A DNA stretch of 31,691 nucleotides from Fidelibacterota bacterium. Lineage in GTDB: Bacteria > Fidelibacterota > Marinisomatia > Marinisomatales > TCS56. Made by a program: the position numbers. The stretch lies in the NCBI GenBank assembly GCA_043822705.1, contig JBDRBK010000005.1:1-31691 (forward strand), written 5' to 3'. This document shows positions 3,001 to 18,000 of the stretch, piece after piece; position 1 is the stretch's first letter; the number at the start of each line of letters is the position of its first letter.

Positions 3001-6000
3001 TTCCTCGATAAAACCATCGCCATCCTCATCATCCTGGATCACCGGTCGTTCCTGTTTTCGTCGCCCCACCAGACCGGTATTCAGATCAACGGCAATCACC
3101 ACCTCCGCCCCCATTGCCCGAGCCACATCCACCGGCACCGGATTGACCAGTCCGCCGTCCACCAGTAATTGTTTTCCGCGACGCACCGGCGTGAAAACGC
3201 CGGGCACGGATACGCTGGCGCGGATCGACTCGATAATGTTGCCGGAATCAAGGATCACCGCCCGGCCGGTATTCAGGTCGGTTGAGACCATCCGCAACGG
3301 TATCCGGAAATCGGCAAAAGTACGGGCATTGGTATGCATCGAAAACAGCTCGTGGACTTTCTTACCGTCCAGAAAACCGGATTTGGGGAAAACCACATCA
3401 AAGTACGACAGCACCATTTTCCAGTTCATTCCCAGGGCGAATTCCCGCAGACTTTCGATACCACCGGTGGCGTAAACCGCCCCGACAAAAGCGCCGATGC
3501 TGGTGCCGGCGATACAGTCGATCGGAACCCGGTGCTCCTCCAGGGCCTGAATCACGCCGATATGCGACCAGCCGCGGGCCGAACCGCTGCCCCGGGCCAG
3601 ACCGATTTTCCTGCGTCCGGCCATCAGCGCCGGCCCAGGCGGGTGATTTCCAGCTCCCGCGAGATATAGGTCCGGGAATCAGGATCGGCCGACAGATAAT
3701 TGTTACTTCCCAGGTACAGGGCAAAATCGATTTTGGTCGGGTCCAGAAGCCCGTCATCCAACACCAGTTTTTCGTCGCAGTGGGCCGCCACGACTTCGCC
3801 GACAAATAAGGTATGGTCGCCGGCCGGATACTGGTGCACTACCCGGCATTCGTAGGCGGCGTAAGCTGAAGCAATGATCGGGCAGGCGATTTCCAGCGAA
3901 TCTGCCAGCGGAATATTGAGTTGTTTGACTTTATCGCCATCATGGCCGGACAAAGTGCCGGTCCCATGGATCATTTTCAGGTGGCGGATATCCAGGAAAT
4001 TGCAGGTGAATTCCCCCGACTCGGCAATCAGGTCGTGGGTAAACCGTTTCGGTGCGATTGACACCAGGTACAACGGCGGTTTATGACTGACACCGCTGTG
4101 CCAGGCGGCGGCCATGAAATTGGTTTTATCGCCCAGGCGCGCCCCAACCAGATTCACTACGGCGGGATAAAAATGATAAAACTGTTCGATCGAAGTTGTT
4201 TTCATAGGACAATACCTCCGGAATTTGGACTGAATTTACTTACCAGGGAAGTAAGCCGCGCAACCGGTTACAGGCGACAGGTGATTCCGCCGTAGAGATA
4301 GGCACCGGAGAAACTGTCATCCCGGAACATATCGGCTGACAAGGAACCGGTCCAGCGTGAGCGAATCCGCCAGTTGAGACTGAATGCCAGATTATGCCGG
4401 AAATAATCGGCGGTCCGATTGCCGTAACCGTAAGCGAATATTTCGTAATCGCCGGACAGCGATCCCAGTTCGCCGAAAACCAGGTTGATCCCGCTACGCA
4501 AGCGCAGTCCGTTCAACAACTGGTTTTTCAGGTAATCGGCGCCCAGGTCGAAATTCCAATGCCGCGAACGGCCCGGTGATGAATAATTGACGGCCACAAA
4601 ATTGGCCGAACTACGCTGACCGGTTTCGGTTTTGATGTTGGCGGATAGCTGCAAAGCGCCAAAGCGCTCCGACCGCAGATGCAGGGCATTGTACCAGCCG
4701 GTGCGCAGTACATCACTGAAGAGCGAATCGGCCCGGTCACCGTAAACGCTGCGGTAAATTACCCGCTGGCGCGAGCTCAGGCGCGAGGTGATTGTAACCG
4801 CCCGGTGGGGTTTCAGGCGGAGCGACGCCTGCAGCGAAGTCCATTCCAGCGAATTACGGTAGGCCAGATTATCGGAACGGTCCAGATCGATCGTCTGGTT
4901 GAACGACAGGTCCAGCCAACGCCTGGTCTCCCAGCGCAGGTTATGATAAATATACTCGCGGTCGATACCACCACCGTAATACTGCCCGACCGTCGCCAGA
5001 CTGGTGGCGAATCGACGCTGGCTGTGGTTGCGGCGGTAACTGCCGTACGCGCCGAATTTGCTGACATCGGTGGAATAGTCCAGACTGCCCGGCAGCGGTT
5101 GCAGACCCGCCAGGGCGCCGACGGACCAGTTTTCAGCCAGACGCAGGCCCAGGTGGGCGCCATCGGTGATACCAATACCGGCCAGTTCCGGAGCATAGAC
5201 CCGTCCCAGTTGTGCCTGCAGCCGGTCACGGCCGCTTCCTAATGCCAGTTGGAACTGATAAATGTTCCAGCGTTGATCGCTGAAATTGCGGTTGCCGTAA
5301 AACGACAGTCGCAGCGTCCGGGGCCGATCGATCGAGATACTGTAATTCAGGGCGGCCACCGATCGCGAATACGAAGTGGCGGAAAACCGCGAATCGGAAT
5401 AACGCCAGGACAGGCTGCCCTGGTGCCGCAACACCGGCCGTGCTGATTGCGGTGCCGCGATTGACTGTTGTGGTTTATCCGGTGCCGGCAGCGCGACCGG
5501 TGCTAGTTTCTCAAGCACGACGCGGTCGCCAAGCAGTAGCTGGTCGATCGGCAACTGCGGCTGACAGACTGAATAATTACCGGACAGGTTGGTCACTACC
5601 AGCAGGCCGACCAGATCATCGCGGCGCATAACCGTCAAAGTATCGCCCACCGCCACGCCGGCCGACGAGCCGAGATCGCAATAGACCAGTTCGGCGGTGA
5701 GATAAGTAATCCGTCCCTGGGCACTGATGACCGGCCGGGCGCCGATCCCGGCGCAGATCGCCAGCAGAATGAGCAGCAAAAGTTTCAGTTTAATCACTTT
5801 TACCTCGCAAGTGGCAGTCGAAGCAGGCGCTGCTCAGGTAAACATAGTTGCGGGCTTCGCCGCGGTGTTTGGAATCCATCGCCGATTGACGGTGGGCATG
5901 GCAGACACCATTAAGGCCGCATTCGAAGCGGGTATAATCGGGCGCATAAACATGGCATTCGACCTCGCAGGAATTCCACTTGCCGTTATGTGCACCGGAA

Positions 6001-15000: not shown

Positions 15001-18000
15001 ACAATTAACGGCATGGAGATTTTTTTTCCGGCGCCGGGAATGGGCATGGATATAGCGGGCCAGCTCCTCCTTGCCGGTACCGGTTTCACCGGTAAGCAGG
15101 ACCGTCGCTTCGCTGGCAGCCACTTTGCGGGCTTTCACCAGCAATTCCAGCATAACCGGATCGCGGGCGATCAGGCTGCTTTCGACAGAATCCGTTTTCG
15201 CTGCCCGGACCGATTGATCCTGATAATTGCGAACTTCCGTCAACTGGCGTTCCAGTTGGTCCAGGTCCACCGGCTTGGCGACAAAATCCCAAGCGCCGGC
15301 TTTCATCGCCTCGACCGCCGCTTCCACCGTCCCGTAGGCGGTCATTATGAAAACCACCGTACCGGGATAGCGGGCCCGGATTTCCTTCAACAGGTCGTTG
15401 CCGGTCAGGTAGGGCATCTTGAAATCCGATAGCACCACATCCACCGGATTGCGGTGCAGAAACGCCAGGGCGGTCTGGGCGGAATCGGCGGTATGCGTCT
15501 CGTAATTCAGGGTCCGCAAAAAGCCCGCCAACGCCTCGCGCTGGGCCCGTTCGTCATCGACCACCAGAATTTTCATCGGCGTCTCCGCGGCAGCGTCAGA
15601 ATGAACTCGGTGCCGATTCCCGGCGAGCTGTTCACCTCGATCGTGCCACCATGATCGGAAATGATTTTATGGGTAATTGCCAGACCGATACCGGTACCAT
15701 TTTCGCGCGTGGTGTAGAAAATATCGAAGATACGATTCAGGTCCGCCGGTGCAATCCCGCTGCCGGTATCTTTGACGCGGATAATGATCTGGTCACGATC
15801 ACCGCTGGCGGACAGGCGAATCTCACCGGAACCAGCGATCGCCTCGATTCCGTTTTTCACAACATTAGCCAGGGCCTGCTGCAGGTATTCCGGGTCGGCT
15901 TCCAGTTCCAATCCGGGTGGGGCCGTCGAACTCAGGTCAATCTGCAGTGCACGGGCCTGGTCCCGGAACAGATTGACGGTCTGCTCGAACAGCAAGCCGA
16001 CGGCTACCGGCACCGGTTTCAGTGGTGTCGGCCGGGCATAGTTCAGGAAATTATCCAGGATGCGGTTAAGCCGGGATATCTCAGAGATCATCGTACCGGA
16101 CATTTCATTGAATTCCGGTTGGGCGTCATCCGGCTGAAATTCCCGCTTCAGACGCTGGGCGATGATCCCGATGGCATTCAACGGATTACGAATTTCGTGG
16201 GCCACGCCCGCCGCCAGGGTGCCGACCGCCGCCTGTTTCTCCTGAATCCGGTTAAGCTGTTCCAGACGCTGCACTTCCTGCTCGATCCGCTGTTTTTCGG
16301 CCTGCAGCAACATTGTATTCTGCCGCGACAGAATCAGGAAAAATGACACGATTACTACCAGGGTCAGCAGTCCGCTGCGCAGCAATATCTGGATGATCAC
16401 GCCGCGACGCATTTCCTGCATCCGGTCGGTGCTGAATCCGACATGAATCTTGCCGGCGCCCCAGTCGAACCTGATGTCTGCCACCACCTCGATAAATTCT
16501 CGTTCTCCACCGGTAAGGTAGAACATATTCTCCTGCAACCGTTCGCGGCGCAGGACCAATAGTTGTTCGGGTACGATTTCCGGCGGCCCGACGAACAGGG
16601 GCGGATATTGAGGTATCCCCAGATTGATATAGGCGACCCCTTCGATTTCCAGCATTTCGCGCAGCAACTGCTCCAGGTCGGTCCGGGCCTTAAACAGGTT
16701 TTCCGCGGCAACGGTCATGTGGCTGACAATCGCACCGCCACGGCTGCGCCGGATGCCCACCAAGAACCGGGCGTCCGGTTCCTGACTGGTACGGTGCCAG
16801 CGCGGCCCACCACCGGGCAGTCCGACGATCAGCGTATCCAGTTCCCCCGTCAACAACGGCTGTAGGTGGCGCTGCCCCATGCCCGGTCCCCGACCGTGAA
16901 ATTCGCCGATACCGGCCAGCAGGCGACCCTGCGAATCAAGTATCGAAATCTGGAAAATATTGCGGTCGTTGATCAAAGTTCGCAGACGTTCGGAAGTAAT
17001 GATTTCTTCCTGATCGATCCGGTCGATGGTGTTCAGCAGATCGAGGGCGCGATCGAGATAGGCTGACCGCAGGTCTTCGGTCAATTCGACCTGCCGGGTG
17101 CCACTGTGCGATATGGCCGTCACGGTGGCGTAGGCATGATCCTGAAACAGATTCAGAATATCACGATAGCGGGAGCGATATTCCAGTAAACCGGCGAGCA
17201 GTACCAGCAGCAAAAGCAGAACGTACAGCAGGATATGCCAGAATTTGACTTGTCGATACCAGGGTGTTGTGCTGTTAGTCTGTGTCGTCATATACAATTC
17301 CGACGGTTAAATTACAAAAAGCATGCTATACCTGATAACAATCATACTGGGCGCTGTCGTTACCGGAAATATTCGACCGAAAACAGCAGATTTTGACTCA
17401 AGTTGGTTTTGTTGCTTAAGTTACTTGGCGATTTTGCTGGTATTTAACGGCGAGGGCTTCATGGATAGTTTGTTTAATCAGGATCTGATACTAATATGAA
17501 ACATGAATTCGGTTTCATCCCGGTGGCTTCATCACTGCTGACCGAAAGTAATCTCAACCAAATGTTGCGGGACTTCCGACCCGCGCTGGAAAATATCGGT
17601 GGCCAGCTCTTGACCGAAAAACAGATCAATCAGGCCAAGCCCTTGGTATTCCTTATTCCCACCGGCGGAACCGAACGGAAGATACTCGATCTGTTGGAAC
17701 AGCGCCACCAGAAAGCACCCCGTCAACCGGCGTTGTTGATAACCCATCCGGGGAATAATTCCCTGCCGGCCGGCCTGGAAGTCATGGCCAGCCTGCAGCA
17801 GAACCACACCAAAGGCCGGATATTCCATCTGCATGATCCCAACGATCAGGCCAGTTTGCAGGAAGTGCAGGATGTCAGCCACGATTTAGCCGTCCATTTG
17901 GAACTGACCAAATCCAGGATCGGTATCGTCGGCACGCCGTCGGACTGGCTGGTGGCCAGCAGTCCGGGGCCACAGATCGTCCGTCGGACCTGGGGGCCGG

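Follow-up and report, generated by a model that had tools for sequence, protein, structure and literature searches.

A six-gene operon for a probable trans-envelope electron conduit in a Fidelibacterota bacterium

The operon and its boundaries

The window is the whole stretch of DNA analysed here, 31,691 nucleotides of contig JBDRBK010000005.1 from a Fidelibacterota bacterium. It contains eleven ORFs of interest, g43 to g53, all on the minus strand, which a first-pass annotation had placed correctly. Judged by comparison with related loci, the conserved unit is g49-g48-g47-g46-g45-g44. The features are as follows.

12351..12378, minus strand: intrinsic terminator directly 3' of g50, with a 12-bp stem, 7 GC pairs, and a T-rich tail
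11358..12227, minus strand: g49, inner-membrane protein, 289 aa
10041..11357, minus strand: g48, TM-anchored Fe-S flavoprotein, 438 aa
8629..10044, minus strand: g47, secreted cytochrome c with 17 CxxCH motifs, 471 aa
6578..8632, minus strand: g46, secreted cytochrome c with 23 CxxCH motifs, 684 aa from Met34
5790..6581, minus strand: g45, secreted cytochrome c with 8 CxxCH motifs, 263 aa
4268..5797, minus strand: g44, outer-membrane protein with a signal peptide, 509 aa

The junctions from g49 to g44 measure 0, -4, -4, -4, and -8 nt. Met34 (position 8632) is the most likely start of g46 and gives an ATGA overlap with g47. The terminator after g50 marks the upstream limit of the unit. A relative's contig that is 95.8% identical spans g50 and parts from the window exactly at 12353. 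The eleven genes had been read as a single operon under a sigma-54 two-component pair; the strong terminator (12378..12351) contradicts this, and together with the tight junctions it points to a self-contained six-gene operon, g49-g44.

The genes around the operon had also been counted as parts of the system, but they have no counterparts in related loci. A BLAST search of 79 such loci returned no match for g50, g51, or g43, and the kinase and regulator matches were weak and scattered. By family searches, g50 is ZraP/Spy-like, g53 is ZraS-like, and g52 is ZraR-like. Within the explanation preferred here, these neighbors are a separate envelope-stress module.

The g48 and g49 proteins

g48 begins with a hydrophobic helix (residues 3-27), predicted to be an N-out membrane anchor, followed by the basic stretch RRKERLARSR. 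Fer4_10 at 54-103 and Pyr_redox_3 at 175-426 are present as first annotated. The ferredoxin-like domain has the motifs C61xxC64xxC67xxxC71P and C92xxH95xxC98xxxC102P, and His95 is invariant in the alignment where a Cys would be expected. Two clusters are predicted, in line with the earlier assignment of two [4Fe-4S] centers, but because His95 replaces Cys in the second motif, one is probably Cys4 and the other Cys3His (or a 3Fe cluster).

Residues 173-430 of g48 are predicted to form a YpdA/TrxR-type, two-dinucleotide-binding flavoprotein domain for FAD and NAD(P)H. GAGPAG (178-183), GGGDSA (328-333), and R353 are invariant. The closest solved structure is Bdr/YpdA (7a7b, E 7.8e-48), followed by TrxR and TrxR-type ferredoxin-NADP reductases; the relatives thus include the NADPH-dependent Bdr as well as TrxR-type ferredoxin-NADP reductases. 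A role as disulfide reductase was rejected because the alignment shows no redox-active Cys pair in the flavoprotein domain and no conserved Cys outside the Fe-S motifs.

g49 is predicted to cross the membrane five times and to carry a helical insert on the cytoplasmic side (about residues 140-250). TM3 carries W89-x3-H93-x13-H107, TM4 carries S129-G-x-x-G133, and TM5 carries W258-x3-H262-x13-H276. The His pairs on TM3 and TM5, each spaced i, i+14, had been noted before and are invariant in a 40-sequence alignment. In distant or fused relatives, at 23-35% identity, these are the only four g49 His that survive (96 of 96 and 91 of 91 aligned). We infer that g49 binds two b-type haems.

As first reported, Pfam gives only sub-threshold matches for g49, to DUF4405 (E 0.0045) and Ni_hydr_CYTB (E 0.0065), both over 248-281. 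Among the 40 family members, DUF4405 is matched in 24, Ferric_reduct in 16, and Ni_hydr_CYTB in 14, always below the curated cut-offs. The AF2 model, previously called mediocre (pLDDT 64), is good when the 40-sequence alignment is used (pLDDT 86.5, pTM 0.76). In fold comparison the di-haem CybB (5oc0_A) scores highest; matches to di-haem cytochromes are weak, with Z 7.8 for CybB and 7.0 for another, below the tool's significance level for helical bundles. Foldseek and a PDB sequence search gave no match. An exact 205-nt contig within g49 occurs in one RNA library, a weak hint of transcription.

Sequence comparison supports g48 and g49 as one functional unit, since they are adjacent in loci and fused in homologues; the earlier pairing of the two is borne out. 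In 44 of 78 related loci the two genes adjoin or overlap. Among the best 120 of 621 long g48 homologues, 88 are covalent g48-g49 fusions, which retain exactly the four g49 His, and 29 are g48-TM-multihaem fusions. Fer4-g49 (P0269) and Fer2-g49 (P0231) fusions are also found, and in a protein atlas an 805-aa Fer4+Pyr_redox cluster aligns structurally with g49. The topology implied by the g48-to-g49 fusion order is consistent with the basic stretch of g48 and with R74/K75/R134 in the inside loops of g49.

Cytochromes, barrel, and distribution

The CxxCH counts of g47, g46, and g45 stand as first given and total 48. g47 is the most constant cytochrome beside g49/g48; its homologues have 17-20 motifs, once 23, and it has no sequence relative in the PDB. 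g46 homologues have 22-58 motifs, and g45 is found in only some related loci. g46 and g47 match an MtrC/MtrF domain II/IV model (E 2e-11 and 1e-12, respectively). No match to an MtrCAB-type family reaches equivalog level, the DmsE/MtrA model scoring 38.6 bits against a cut-off of 192.

g44 has a small N-terminal beta domain (23-98) followed by about 22 beta strands (122-508). Its C-terminus reads ...TCRL, and homologues end in YRF/YRL. The AF2 model (pLDDT 85.6, 22 strands) has 198 Foldseek matches at E<=0.001, and the top matches listed are all outer-membrane barrels (ushers, MOMP, OccK, AlgE). The barrel first suggested from sequence character is upheld by these results, in which g44 is modelled as an outer-membrane barrel of roughly 22 strands.

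In a collection with one genome per species, 592 stretches from many phyla match. Carriers are found in FCB-group lineages, Acidobacteriota, and others; by record titles, pelagic lineages are among them. Within the phylum, a g49 homologue is present in 55 of 201 genomes and in 39 of the 140 of good quality, the same proportion as counted before. The 78 related loci fetched are those with full-length g49: 60 have g48, 37 have g44, and 67 have a cytochrome of at least 10 haems within 2.5 kb. The 18 loci that lack g48 all run out within 4.2 kb. Where at least 9 kb of downstream flank is available (36 loci), g48 and a cytochrome of at least 10 haems are present in 36 of 36, and g44 in 31 of 36. 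Comparison of these loci supports a g48/g49 pair that travels always with multihaem cytochromes and usually with the barrel.

Proposed electron path and competing explanations

We consider it somewhat better than an even chance, at a probability of about 0.55, that g49-g44 forms a six-gene operon of its own, encoding a trans-envelope electron conduit of the hypothetical PCC3/PCC4 type, with a two-protein NOX-like entry at the inner membrane and outward flow. Export of electrons from NAD(P)H is the best reading of the encoded proteins. Cytoplasmic NAD(P)H, probably NADPH, would reduce the FAD of g48. Single electrons would then cross its two Fe-S clusters, the His95-ligated one being the likely exit, to a cytoplasm-side haem b of g49 (ligands H93 and H262) and across the membrane to a periplasm-side haem b (H107 and H276). 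From there they would pass to the 17-haem g47, to g46 and g45, and out through or at the g44 barrel. The final acceptor would be extracellular, such as metal oxides, humics, or another cell.

NOX/ferric-reductase enzymes pass electrons from NAD(P)H to flavin, then through two stacked b haems held by His pairs on two helices, to an acceptor across the membrane. Fre-MsrQ is a split form of this chain. The chain proposed for g48/g49 is alike, with several differences. g49 has five TM helices and not six, and PF01794 similarity is sub-threshold in 16 of 40 members, the window's own g49 not among them. The dehydrogenase is YpdA/TrxR-type with an added Fe-S domain rather than FNR-type, the fused forms have their domains in the opposite order, and electrons would pass to a cytochrome c wire instead of O2 or MsrP.

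CbcL, ImcH, and CymA of Geobacter and Shewanella are inner-membrane entries that pass electrons to periplasmic multihaem cytochromes, the role proposed here for g48/g49, but they draw these electrons from menaquinol; CbcL joins a di-haem b domain to a multihaem c domain. To our knowledge, none has a cytoplasmic flavoprotein or Fe-S partner, the place that g48 takes here. In Tmc and Hmc of sulfate reducers, a multihaem cytochrome in the periplasm, a cytochrome b in the membrane, and an Fe-S protein in the cytoplasm link the two compartments, a set like the present one. On the cytoplasmic side they have an HdrD-like CCG protein rather than an NAD(P)H flavoprotein, their proposed flow is inward, and we know of no outer-membrane barrel in them, whereas one is present here. 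MtrCAB and the Geobacter porin-cytochrome complexes cross the outer membrane with a barrel and multihaem cytochromes, as here, but the haem numbers in this operon are much higher and the barrel family is different.

A quinone-independent entry of this type had been put forward as new. The idea is not new in kind: similar systems appear in He et al. 2017 (PMC5566968) and in the Ptd preprint (bioRxiv 10.1101/2023.11.21.568154). The PCC3/PCC4 inner-membrane protein (IMP) is described with 5 TM, SGxxG on TM4, and WX3HX13H on TM3 and TM5; it was compared to NOX/ferric reductase, two b haems were inferred, and quinone coupling was proposed (PMC5566968). PCC3 combines a porin and an IMP of roughly 300 aa with two multihaem cytochromes, one periplasmic (median 21 haems) and the other very rich in haem (PMC5566968; Hoover et al. 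2023, PMC9900912). By description alone, g49 has all features of the PCC3 IMP (5 TM, SGXXG, two WX3HX13H).

PCC3 is known from Proteobacteria, has no described flavoprotein partner, and is drawn with a quinone-active IMP and inward flow, PCC3 and PCC4 having first been reported from Fe(II) oxidisers (PMC5566968). The present system occurs instead in FCB-group lineages, Acidobacteriota, and others. Its IMP is obligately paired with a TM-anchored Fe-S flavoprotein, to which it is fused in relatives elsewhere, and its barrel, at about 22 strands, is smaller than that of PCC3, for which up to 42 are predicted. The Ptd cluster combines a porin and multihaem cytochromes with an FAD/NAD(P) oxidoreductase, a 4Fe-4S protein, and a membrane protein resembling ferric reductases, and its authors term the function of ptdABCDEFG "completely unknown" (bioRxiv 10.1101/2023.11.21.568154). 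As described there, PCC4/ptdABCDEFG has the same set of cofactor modules as g49-g44, but its three inner modules are separate (PtdC, PtdE with cNMP domains, PtdF) and its cytochromes have 5, 4, and 10 haems; here Fe-S and flavin share one anchored protein, cNMP domains are absent, and the haems number 17, 23, and 8.

The alternative that survives best, though still an unlikely one, is a quinone-coupled gateway in which g49 works, like CbcL, CymA, or hydrogenase cytochrome b, as a quinol:cytochrome c oxidoreductase (or quinone reductase). g48 would then serve it as a dedicated NAD(P)H:quinone reductase or as an accessory feeding a local quinone, as Ndh2 does in the flavin-based pathway of Listeria. 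The sub-threshold similarities of g49 are in its favor, since Ni_hydr_CYTB and cytochrome b Pfam families are typically quinone-reactive, as is the fold match to CybB, a di-haem cytochrome b561 that we take to reduce quinone. A quinone-active role for the PCC3/PCC4 IMP is also already published (PMC5566968). The genome has MenA, and so makes menaquinone; it also has complex-I-type genes and encodes a NapC/NirT-type protein, which leaves a quinone route open. However, in g48 a two-cluster ferredoxin domain joins the membrane anchor to the flavoprotein, and whole g48 is fused to g49 in most of the best long homologues; a direct Fe-S-to-haem wire suits this arrangement better than a diffusible intermediate. 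The Fer4-only and Fer2-only fusions, moreover, lack a flavin for quinone reduction.

It is improbable that the NADPH electrons serve envelope supply, going to cytochromes of the periplasm or cell surface to support repair, detoxification, or soluble-metal reduction with no mineral or electrode acceptor. Such supply is known from Fre-MsrQ, which feeds MsrP, and from DsbD, which feeds periplasmic reductases, and its inner-membrane mechanism would be identical to that preferred here. The adjoining envelope/metal-stress module and the pelagic carriers fit it as well. Against it, 48 haems with a dedicated 22-strand barrel are the architecture of a trans-outer-membrane wire, and the stress module lies behind the terminator, with g50 and g51 lacking counterparts in related loci. 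Inward flow, in which electrons from Fe(II), Mn(II), or a cathode outside the cell would enter by g49 and g48 and end on NAD(P)+ or another acceptor in the cytoplasm, is the direction drawn for PCC3 and PCC4. It is very improbable: by standard bioenergetics, it would run against the inside-negative potential onto NAD(P)+ (about -320 mV) and call for a much stronger reductant than Fe(II), and most carriers belong, by record titles, to lineages known as organotrophs.

In the preferred reading, NOX-like export of NAD(P)H electrons, outward flow would be non-conserving or even depolarising, as in NOX, and the system would re-oxidise NAD(P)H, acting as an electron sink. The g48/g49 route need not involve the quinone pool. 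If this holds, the inner-membrane entry to an extracellular electron wire may bypass the quinone pool.

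Gene layout and limits of the module

Eleven ORFs lie on the minus strand at 3624-17297, running from g53 to g43. Pfam and NCBIfam bear out the domains assigned by a first-pass annotation. The gene g53 encodes a ZraS/AtoS-like kinase, g52 a sigma-54 activator, g50 a Metal_resist/LTXXQ protein (ZraP/Spy/CpxP-like), and g43 a Flavin_Reduct protein. The Fe-S flavoprotein g48 carries Fer4_10 (residues 54-103) and Pyr_redox_3 (175-426) in Pfam. No family match was found for g44 or g51 in Pfam or NCBIfam. Motif counting returns the CxxCH numbers previously given for the three c-cytochromes, namely 8 (g45), 23 (g46), and 17 (g47).

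The same annotation described a single operon under sigma-54 control. That reading is contradicted by a terminator between g50 and g49, the membrane protein gene. The non-coding features of this region are as follows.

12378..12351, minus strand: hairpin terminator directly 3' of g50, with a GC-rich 12-bp stem and then a T-rich tail
14124..14110: weak sigma-54-like site TGGCACGGCATTCGT upstream of g51, from a pattern search
14241..14224: perfect 18-bp palindrome TTCGACAAATTTGTCGAA upstream of g51 (intergenic 14063-14262)

An AT-rich spacer of about 120 nt lies between the hairpin and g49. A relative's contig that spans g50 at 95.8% identity leaves the window sequence exactly at 12353, which places a module boundary there. 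The sigma-54 promoter pattern search gave 28 matches versus 34 expected by chance, and none falls between g50 and g49. Based on the terminator, the boundary at 12353, the sigma-54-like site, and the palindrome, g53, g52, g51, and g50 (12396-17297, minus strand) look like a self-contained envelope-stress module of the ZraPSR type.

Between g49 and g44, one junction is a TAA directly followed by ATG, three are ATGA overlaps, and at one the genes overlap by 8 nt. Thus, g49-g48-g47-g46-g45-g44 form one translationally coupled unit. The genes g50, g51, and g43 had been counted as members of the system; none has a BLAST counterpart in 79 relatives' loci that carry a g49 homologue, and g51 is no part of the conserved module. 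Kinase and regulator matches in these loci are sparse and scattered, and most of them are weak (21-41% identity).

The HpaC/StyB-like g43 (3624-4205, minus strand) begins 62 nt past g44, and at its stop it overlaps the start of a gene for a patatin-like phospholipase (2674-3624, minus strand). Neither gene turned up in the related loci, which leaves a link to the proposed electron conduit without support. Elsewhere in the window, a 2136-aa ORF (22741-29151, minus strand) has Laminin_G_3, CarboxypepD_reg, and a C-terminal FlgD_ig. It is followed by a 559-aa ORF (29209-30888, minus strand) with Peptidase_S74, an endosialidase chaperone. Both are probably large surface proteins.

Proteins of the conserved unit

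The membrane protein g49 has 289 aa. AlphaFold2 (AF2) predicts helices at residues 3-32, 52-76, 86-107, 115-138, and 225-282, with a helical cytoplasmic insert. The model had been called mediocre at pLDDT 64; with a 40-sequence alignment it reaches pLDDT 86.5 and pTM 0.76. The two His pairs noted at first pass are confirmed as W89/H93/H107 and W258/H262/H276, with all four His invariant in the 40 sequences. S129, G130, and G133, the SGXXG motif of TM4, are also invariant in this alignment. Among 98 distant sequences (21-35% identity), H93/H107 is kept in 96 of 96 aligned and H262/H276 in 91 of 91. H55, H256, and H259 are conserved in close relatives and lost among the distant set. Other residues kept there are R38, R74, R/K75, R134, Y137, and P141, mostly on the predicted cytoplasmic face. 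By the positive-inside rule, the N-terminus would be inside, with H93/H262 near the cytoplasm and H107/H276 near the periplasm. A helix spacing of i, i+14 sets ligands ~21 angstroms apart, the usual haem-haem distance in such bundles.

As reported before, the Pfam matches of g49 itself are limited to sub-threshold DUF4405 and Ni_hydr_CYTB. The latter (PF01292) scores 16.7 bits against a cut-off of 30.1 and covers TM5 only. Sub-threshold matches among the 40 family members are to DUF4405 (24), Ferric_reduct (PF01794; 16), and Ni_hydr_CYTB (14), which we take to be di-haem membrane families of one Pfam clan. The best Ferric_reduct E among relatives is 1e-5, still sub-threshold, and the window's g49 has no PF01794 match in Pfam. 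By structure, the closest fold is the E. coli superoxide oxidase CybB (5oc0_A), a di-haem cytochrome b561. CybB ranks first of 48161 chains in an exhaustive structure aligner, at Z 7.8 and rmsd 3.5 over 135 residues, which is below the aligner's significance level for helical bundles. STEAP1 is 13th, with a Z of 7.0 that is also below this level. Foldseek against the PDB gave no match to g49 at E<=0.001, and a profile search of PDB sequences returned coiled-coil noise and no relative.

The flavoprotein g48 begins with a helix and then a basic stretch in 27 of 27 aligned homologues, which would place its catalytic part in the cytoplasm. Ferredoxin motif 1, CxxCxxCxxxCP, is complete in the window's protein, and its second Cys is missing in 9 of the 27. 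Motif 2 is CxxHxxCxxxCP; the invariant His95 replaces the second Cys, and the sequence fits a Cys3His or a 3Fe cluster. In [NiFe] hydrogenases, electrons leave through a distal cluster that has a His ligand. By this likeness, the His95 cluster would be the natural donor to haem.

The flavoprotein part contains the dinucleotide motifs GAGPAG and GGGDSA, then YR(K/R) with an invariant R353. In the 27 homologues, there is no conserved Cys outside the Fe-S motifs and no conserved CxxC in residues 173-430. Among solved structures, NADPH-dependent Bdr/YpdA (7a7b, E 7.8e-48) is the closest relative, followed by thioredoxin reductases and by ferredoxin-NADP reductases of the TrxR type. On the basis of these relatives, g48 reads as a putative NAD(P)H:Fe-S oxidoreductase that carries its own ferredoxin as a fused domain, rather than as a disulfide reductase. 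Two disulfide reductase assignments were rejected. YpdA/Bdr bacillithiol disulfide reductase (TIGR04018) is the best NCBIfam model; its score of 157.9 bits falls short of the 339.9 cut-off, and the catalytic Cys is missing. Thioredoxin reductase (TIGR01292) reaches 81.4 bits against 343, and the redox-active CxxC is missing. Residues 123-139, within the segment 117-165 before GxGxxG, align with the FAD motif that YpdA has at its C-terminal end (chain residues 277-293). This suggests from the alignment that the flavoprotein is circularly permuted relative to YpdA/TrxR, with the ferredoxin domain at the new N-terminus.

Of the cytochromes, g46 probably starts at Met34 (position 8632), since from there the protein has a signal peptide and the gene overlaps g47 by ATGA. 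Assignment of g46 to the MtrA/DmsE decahaem family (TIGR03508) was rejected at 38.6 bits against a cut-off of 192.2. Two outer-membrane barrels had been proposed, and one of them stands. The AF2 model of g44 (pLDDT 85.6) has a small predicted N-terminal beta domain and ~22 strands. Foldseek gives 198 matches at E<=0.001, with the listed top matches all outer-membrane barrels, and g44 homologues end in aromatic-x-F/L tails. The link to a barrel is weak for g51, a 371-aa secreted protein; in the atlas clusters nearest to it, 19-32% of members carry the Slam family.

Family spread, co-occurrence, and fusions

The g49 family comprises 614 clusters at 90% identity and 2877 representatives at 50% identity (E<=0.001). 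A one-genome-per-species collection holds 592 matching stretches. Their records name Fidelibacterota, Calditrichota, KSB1, Zixibacteria, Ignavibacteria, Bacteroidota, Gemmatimonadota, Krumholzibacteriia, and Acidobacteriota. The split or fused module is found in records of many phyla, Planctomycetota included. Within Fidelibacterota, g49 is patchy, occurring in 55/201 genomes, 39/140 good ones, and 26/79 genera. All sequencing runs contained only small shares, at most 0.18 of the sampled words. One exact 205-nt contig from an RNA library lies within g49; neither result is taken as evidence on habitat or expression level.

Co-occurrence was counted over the 78 fetched loci in which the g49 homologue is full-length. 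A g48 homologue is present in 60 (44 within 300 nt), a g44 homologue in 37, and a cytochrome with at least 10 CxxCH within 2.5 kb of g49 in 67. All 18 loci that lack g48 end within 4.2 kb of g49. When at least 9 kb is available downstream (36 loci), both g48 and a cytochrome with at least 10 CxxCH are found in all 36, and g44 in 31. The five g44-less loci are Acidobacteriota, and in the ORF map of four of them an ORF of 639-791 aa, itself unmatched, separates g48 from the cytochromes. Gene order is variable, with g48 before g49, after g49, or after the barrel. This variation argues for selection on co-occurrence over simple shared ancestry of the arrangement. In one further locus, from Ignavibacteriae (L067, 10001-10777), the g49 homologue is broken into two ORFs (178 and 113 aa), and no 20-haem cytochrome sits at the usual place. 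Either decay of this copy or an error in the assembly may be the cause.

Long homologues of g48 (at least 768 aa) number 621, and the best 120 were classified. In 88 of these 120, the g48 domain is followed by a g49 domain in a protein of about 770-800 aa; sources include Planctomycetota and Phycisphaerales. In another 29, g48 is followed by a signal-anchor-like helix and 13-37 CxxCH. The rest are one apparent frameshifted triple fusion and two proteins with g48 only. An 805-aa atlas cluster with Fer4_10 and Pyr_redox_3 aligns structurally with g49 (TM 0.79). Ahead of the g49-like domain, the database protein P0269 has several Fer4 clusters and P0231 a 2Fe-2S domain instead.

The putative g48-multihaem chains (P0270-P0297, P0304, and P0351; 797-1368 aa) come from Acidobacteriota/Thermoanaerobaculia and one Alphaproteobacteria record, and read-through is possible. 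Such chains would unite a cytoplasmic flavoprotein and a periplasmic cytochrome in one polypeptide. Fusions of g49 to multihaem cytochromes were rejected, as they are separate g49 ORFs overlapped by over-extended cytochrome ORFs. P0228, P0251, and P0301 have no His pair on TM5, and their sequences look like frameshifts that run into the neighbour's signal peptide.

The case for g48 and g49 acting as a single device has become stronger, chiefly through the fusions, the pattern of four invariant His, and a co-occurrence that is complete. The observation itself is real, and chance falls far short of explaining it.

Known systems and the proposed electron path

The conserved inner-membrane protein (IMP) of the PCC3 and PCC4 porin-cytochrome clusters (He et al. 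2017, PMC5566968) resembles g49. It is ~300 aa with five TM, and its WX3HX13H on TM3/TM5 and SGXXG on TM4 are all present in g49. The PCC3 gene set is also present here, as the predicted g44 barrel, g47 (17 haems), g46 (23 haems, putative extracellular), and g49. By the authors' account, the PCC3 and PCC4 IMPs share motifs and have no significant overall similarity (PMC5566968). He et al. infer two b haems, liken the IMP to the NOX/ferric-reductase domain and cytochrome b, and propose a quinone-active role. PCC4 further includes an Fe-S gene and "other redox" genes (PMC5566968). Table S6 lists smaller clusters of cytochrome, IMP, and redox protein, with only lengths for the "other redox protein". 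No flavoprotein or Fe-S terms occur in the accessible supplement text; Supplementary Figure 4 (domain architectures) may show a Fer4/FAD protein.

The ptdABCDEFG (Ptd) cluster has an FAD/NAD(P) oxidoreductase, a cNMP/4Fe-4S protein, a ferric-reductase-like membrane protein, a porin, and cytochromes with 5, 4, and 10 haems. Its function is called "completely unknown" by its authors (bioRxiv 10.1101/2023.11.21.568154). A 2026 preprint on Ferrigenium describes a trio of nonahaem, 5-TM, and 4Fe-4S proteins and does not recognise the membrane protein as redox-active. Across the published descriptions of PCC3, PCC4, and Ptd, the inner-membrane protein is quinone-linked or unexplained (PMC5566968; bioRxiv 10.1101/2023.11.21.568154). 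NAD(P)H-driven, quinone-independent export and fusion evidence are absent from the He et al., Ptd, and Ferrigenium passages.

Literature searches found nothing on multihaem EET (extracellular electron transfer) in Marinimicrobia, no proposal of a quinone-independent, NADPH-oxidase-like entry, and no pairing of a multihaem cytochrome with an FAD-dependent oxidoreductase. The term "HX13H" was found in He et al. 2017 only, and the EET surveys searched do not discuss a flavoprotein or cytochrome b partner. The novelty claimed at first pass is therefore narrower. This kind of IMP is already published; the flavoprotein coupling and the fusions are new as a variant, as far as these partial sources go. 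The kind of system to which the locus belongs is in print but uncharacterised, and coupling to a flavoprotein sets this form of it apart. The NOX comparison also has limits. NOX/ferric reductase (PF01794) has a six-TM core, whereas g49 has five TM, and NOX uses an FNR-type FAD/NADPH dehydrogenase domain in contrast to the Pyr_redox_3/YpdA-type partner g48.

The most economical reading of the sequences is the following path. Electrons would pass from NAD(P)H to FAD and the two Fe-S clusters of g48, then to the inside and outside b haems of g49. From the outside haem, they would move to g47, g46/g45, and the barrel. Outward flow is favoured because the inside-negative membrane potential helps electrons leave the cell, and inward flow onto NAD(P)+ would call for a donor whose potential lies well under -320 mV. 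The outward path would conserve no energy and would depolarise the membrane like NOX; its use would be as an electron sink.

We infer that g48 and g49 may bypass the quinone pool. The genome also encodes MenA, complex-I-type antiporter subunits, and a NapC/NirT-type protein. Four further multihaem groups (4-17 CxxCH) lie on contigs C59, C99, C110, and C172, with a NapC/NirT-type neighbour on C110. The organism is cytochrome-rich beyond the g49-g44 locus. Together, these genes make the bypass an option, not a necessity.

To our knowledge, every characterised Gram-negative EET pathway draws on the quinone pool (CymA, CbcL, ImcH). The full reading is that g48 and g49 would be the first quinone-free inner-membrane entry for EET in diderms. 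They would be a prokaryotic Fe-S analogue of NADPH oxidase that passes electrons from cytoplasmic NAD(P)H through two b haems to a 17-haem periplasmic wire and a porin, in a widespread form of "venting". We put its probability at roughly two in five. To a quinone-linked or unexplained inner-membrane protein, the fusion statistics offer a concrete alternative that can be tested, and single-polypeptide versions would be easy to express. If true, electron entry straight from NAD(P)H into the cytochromes would alter energy-yield calculations for metal and humic reduction, as well as the set of metagenome organisms that score as electroactive. One fused gene could then replace a quinone-dependent chain in synthetic electron export. 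Non-energy-conserving "electron venting" would, if the reading is true, be a common and overlooked redox-balancing strategy.
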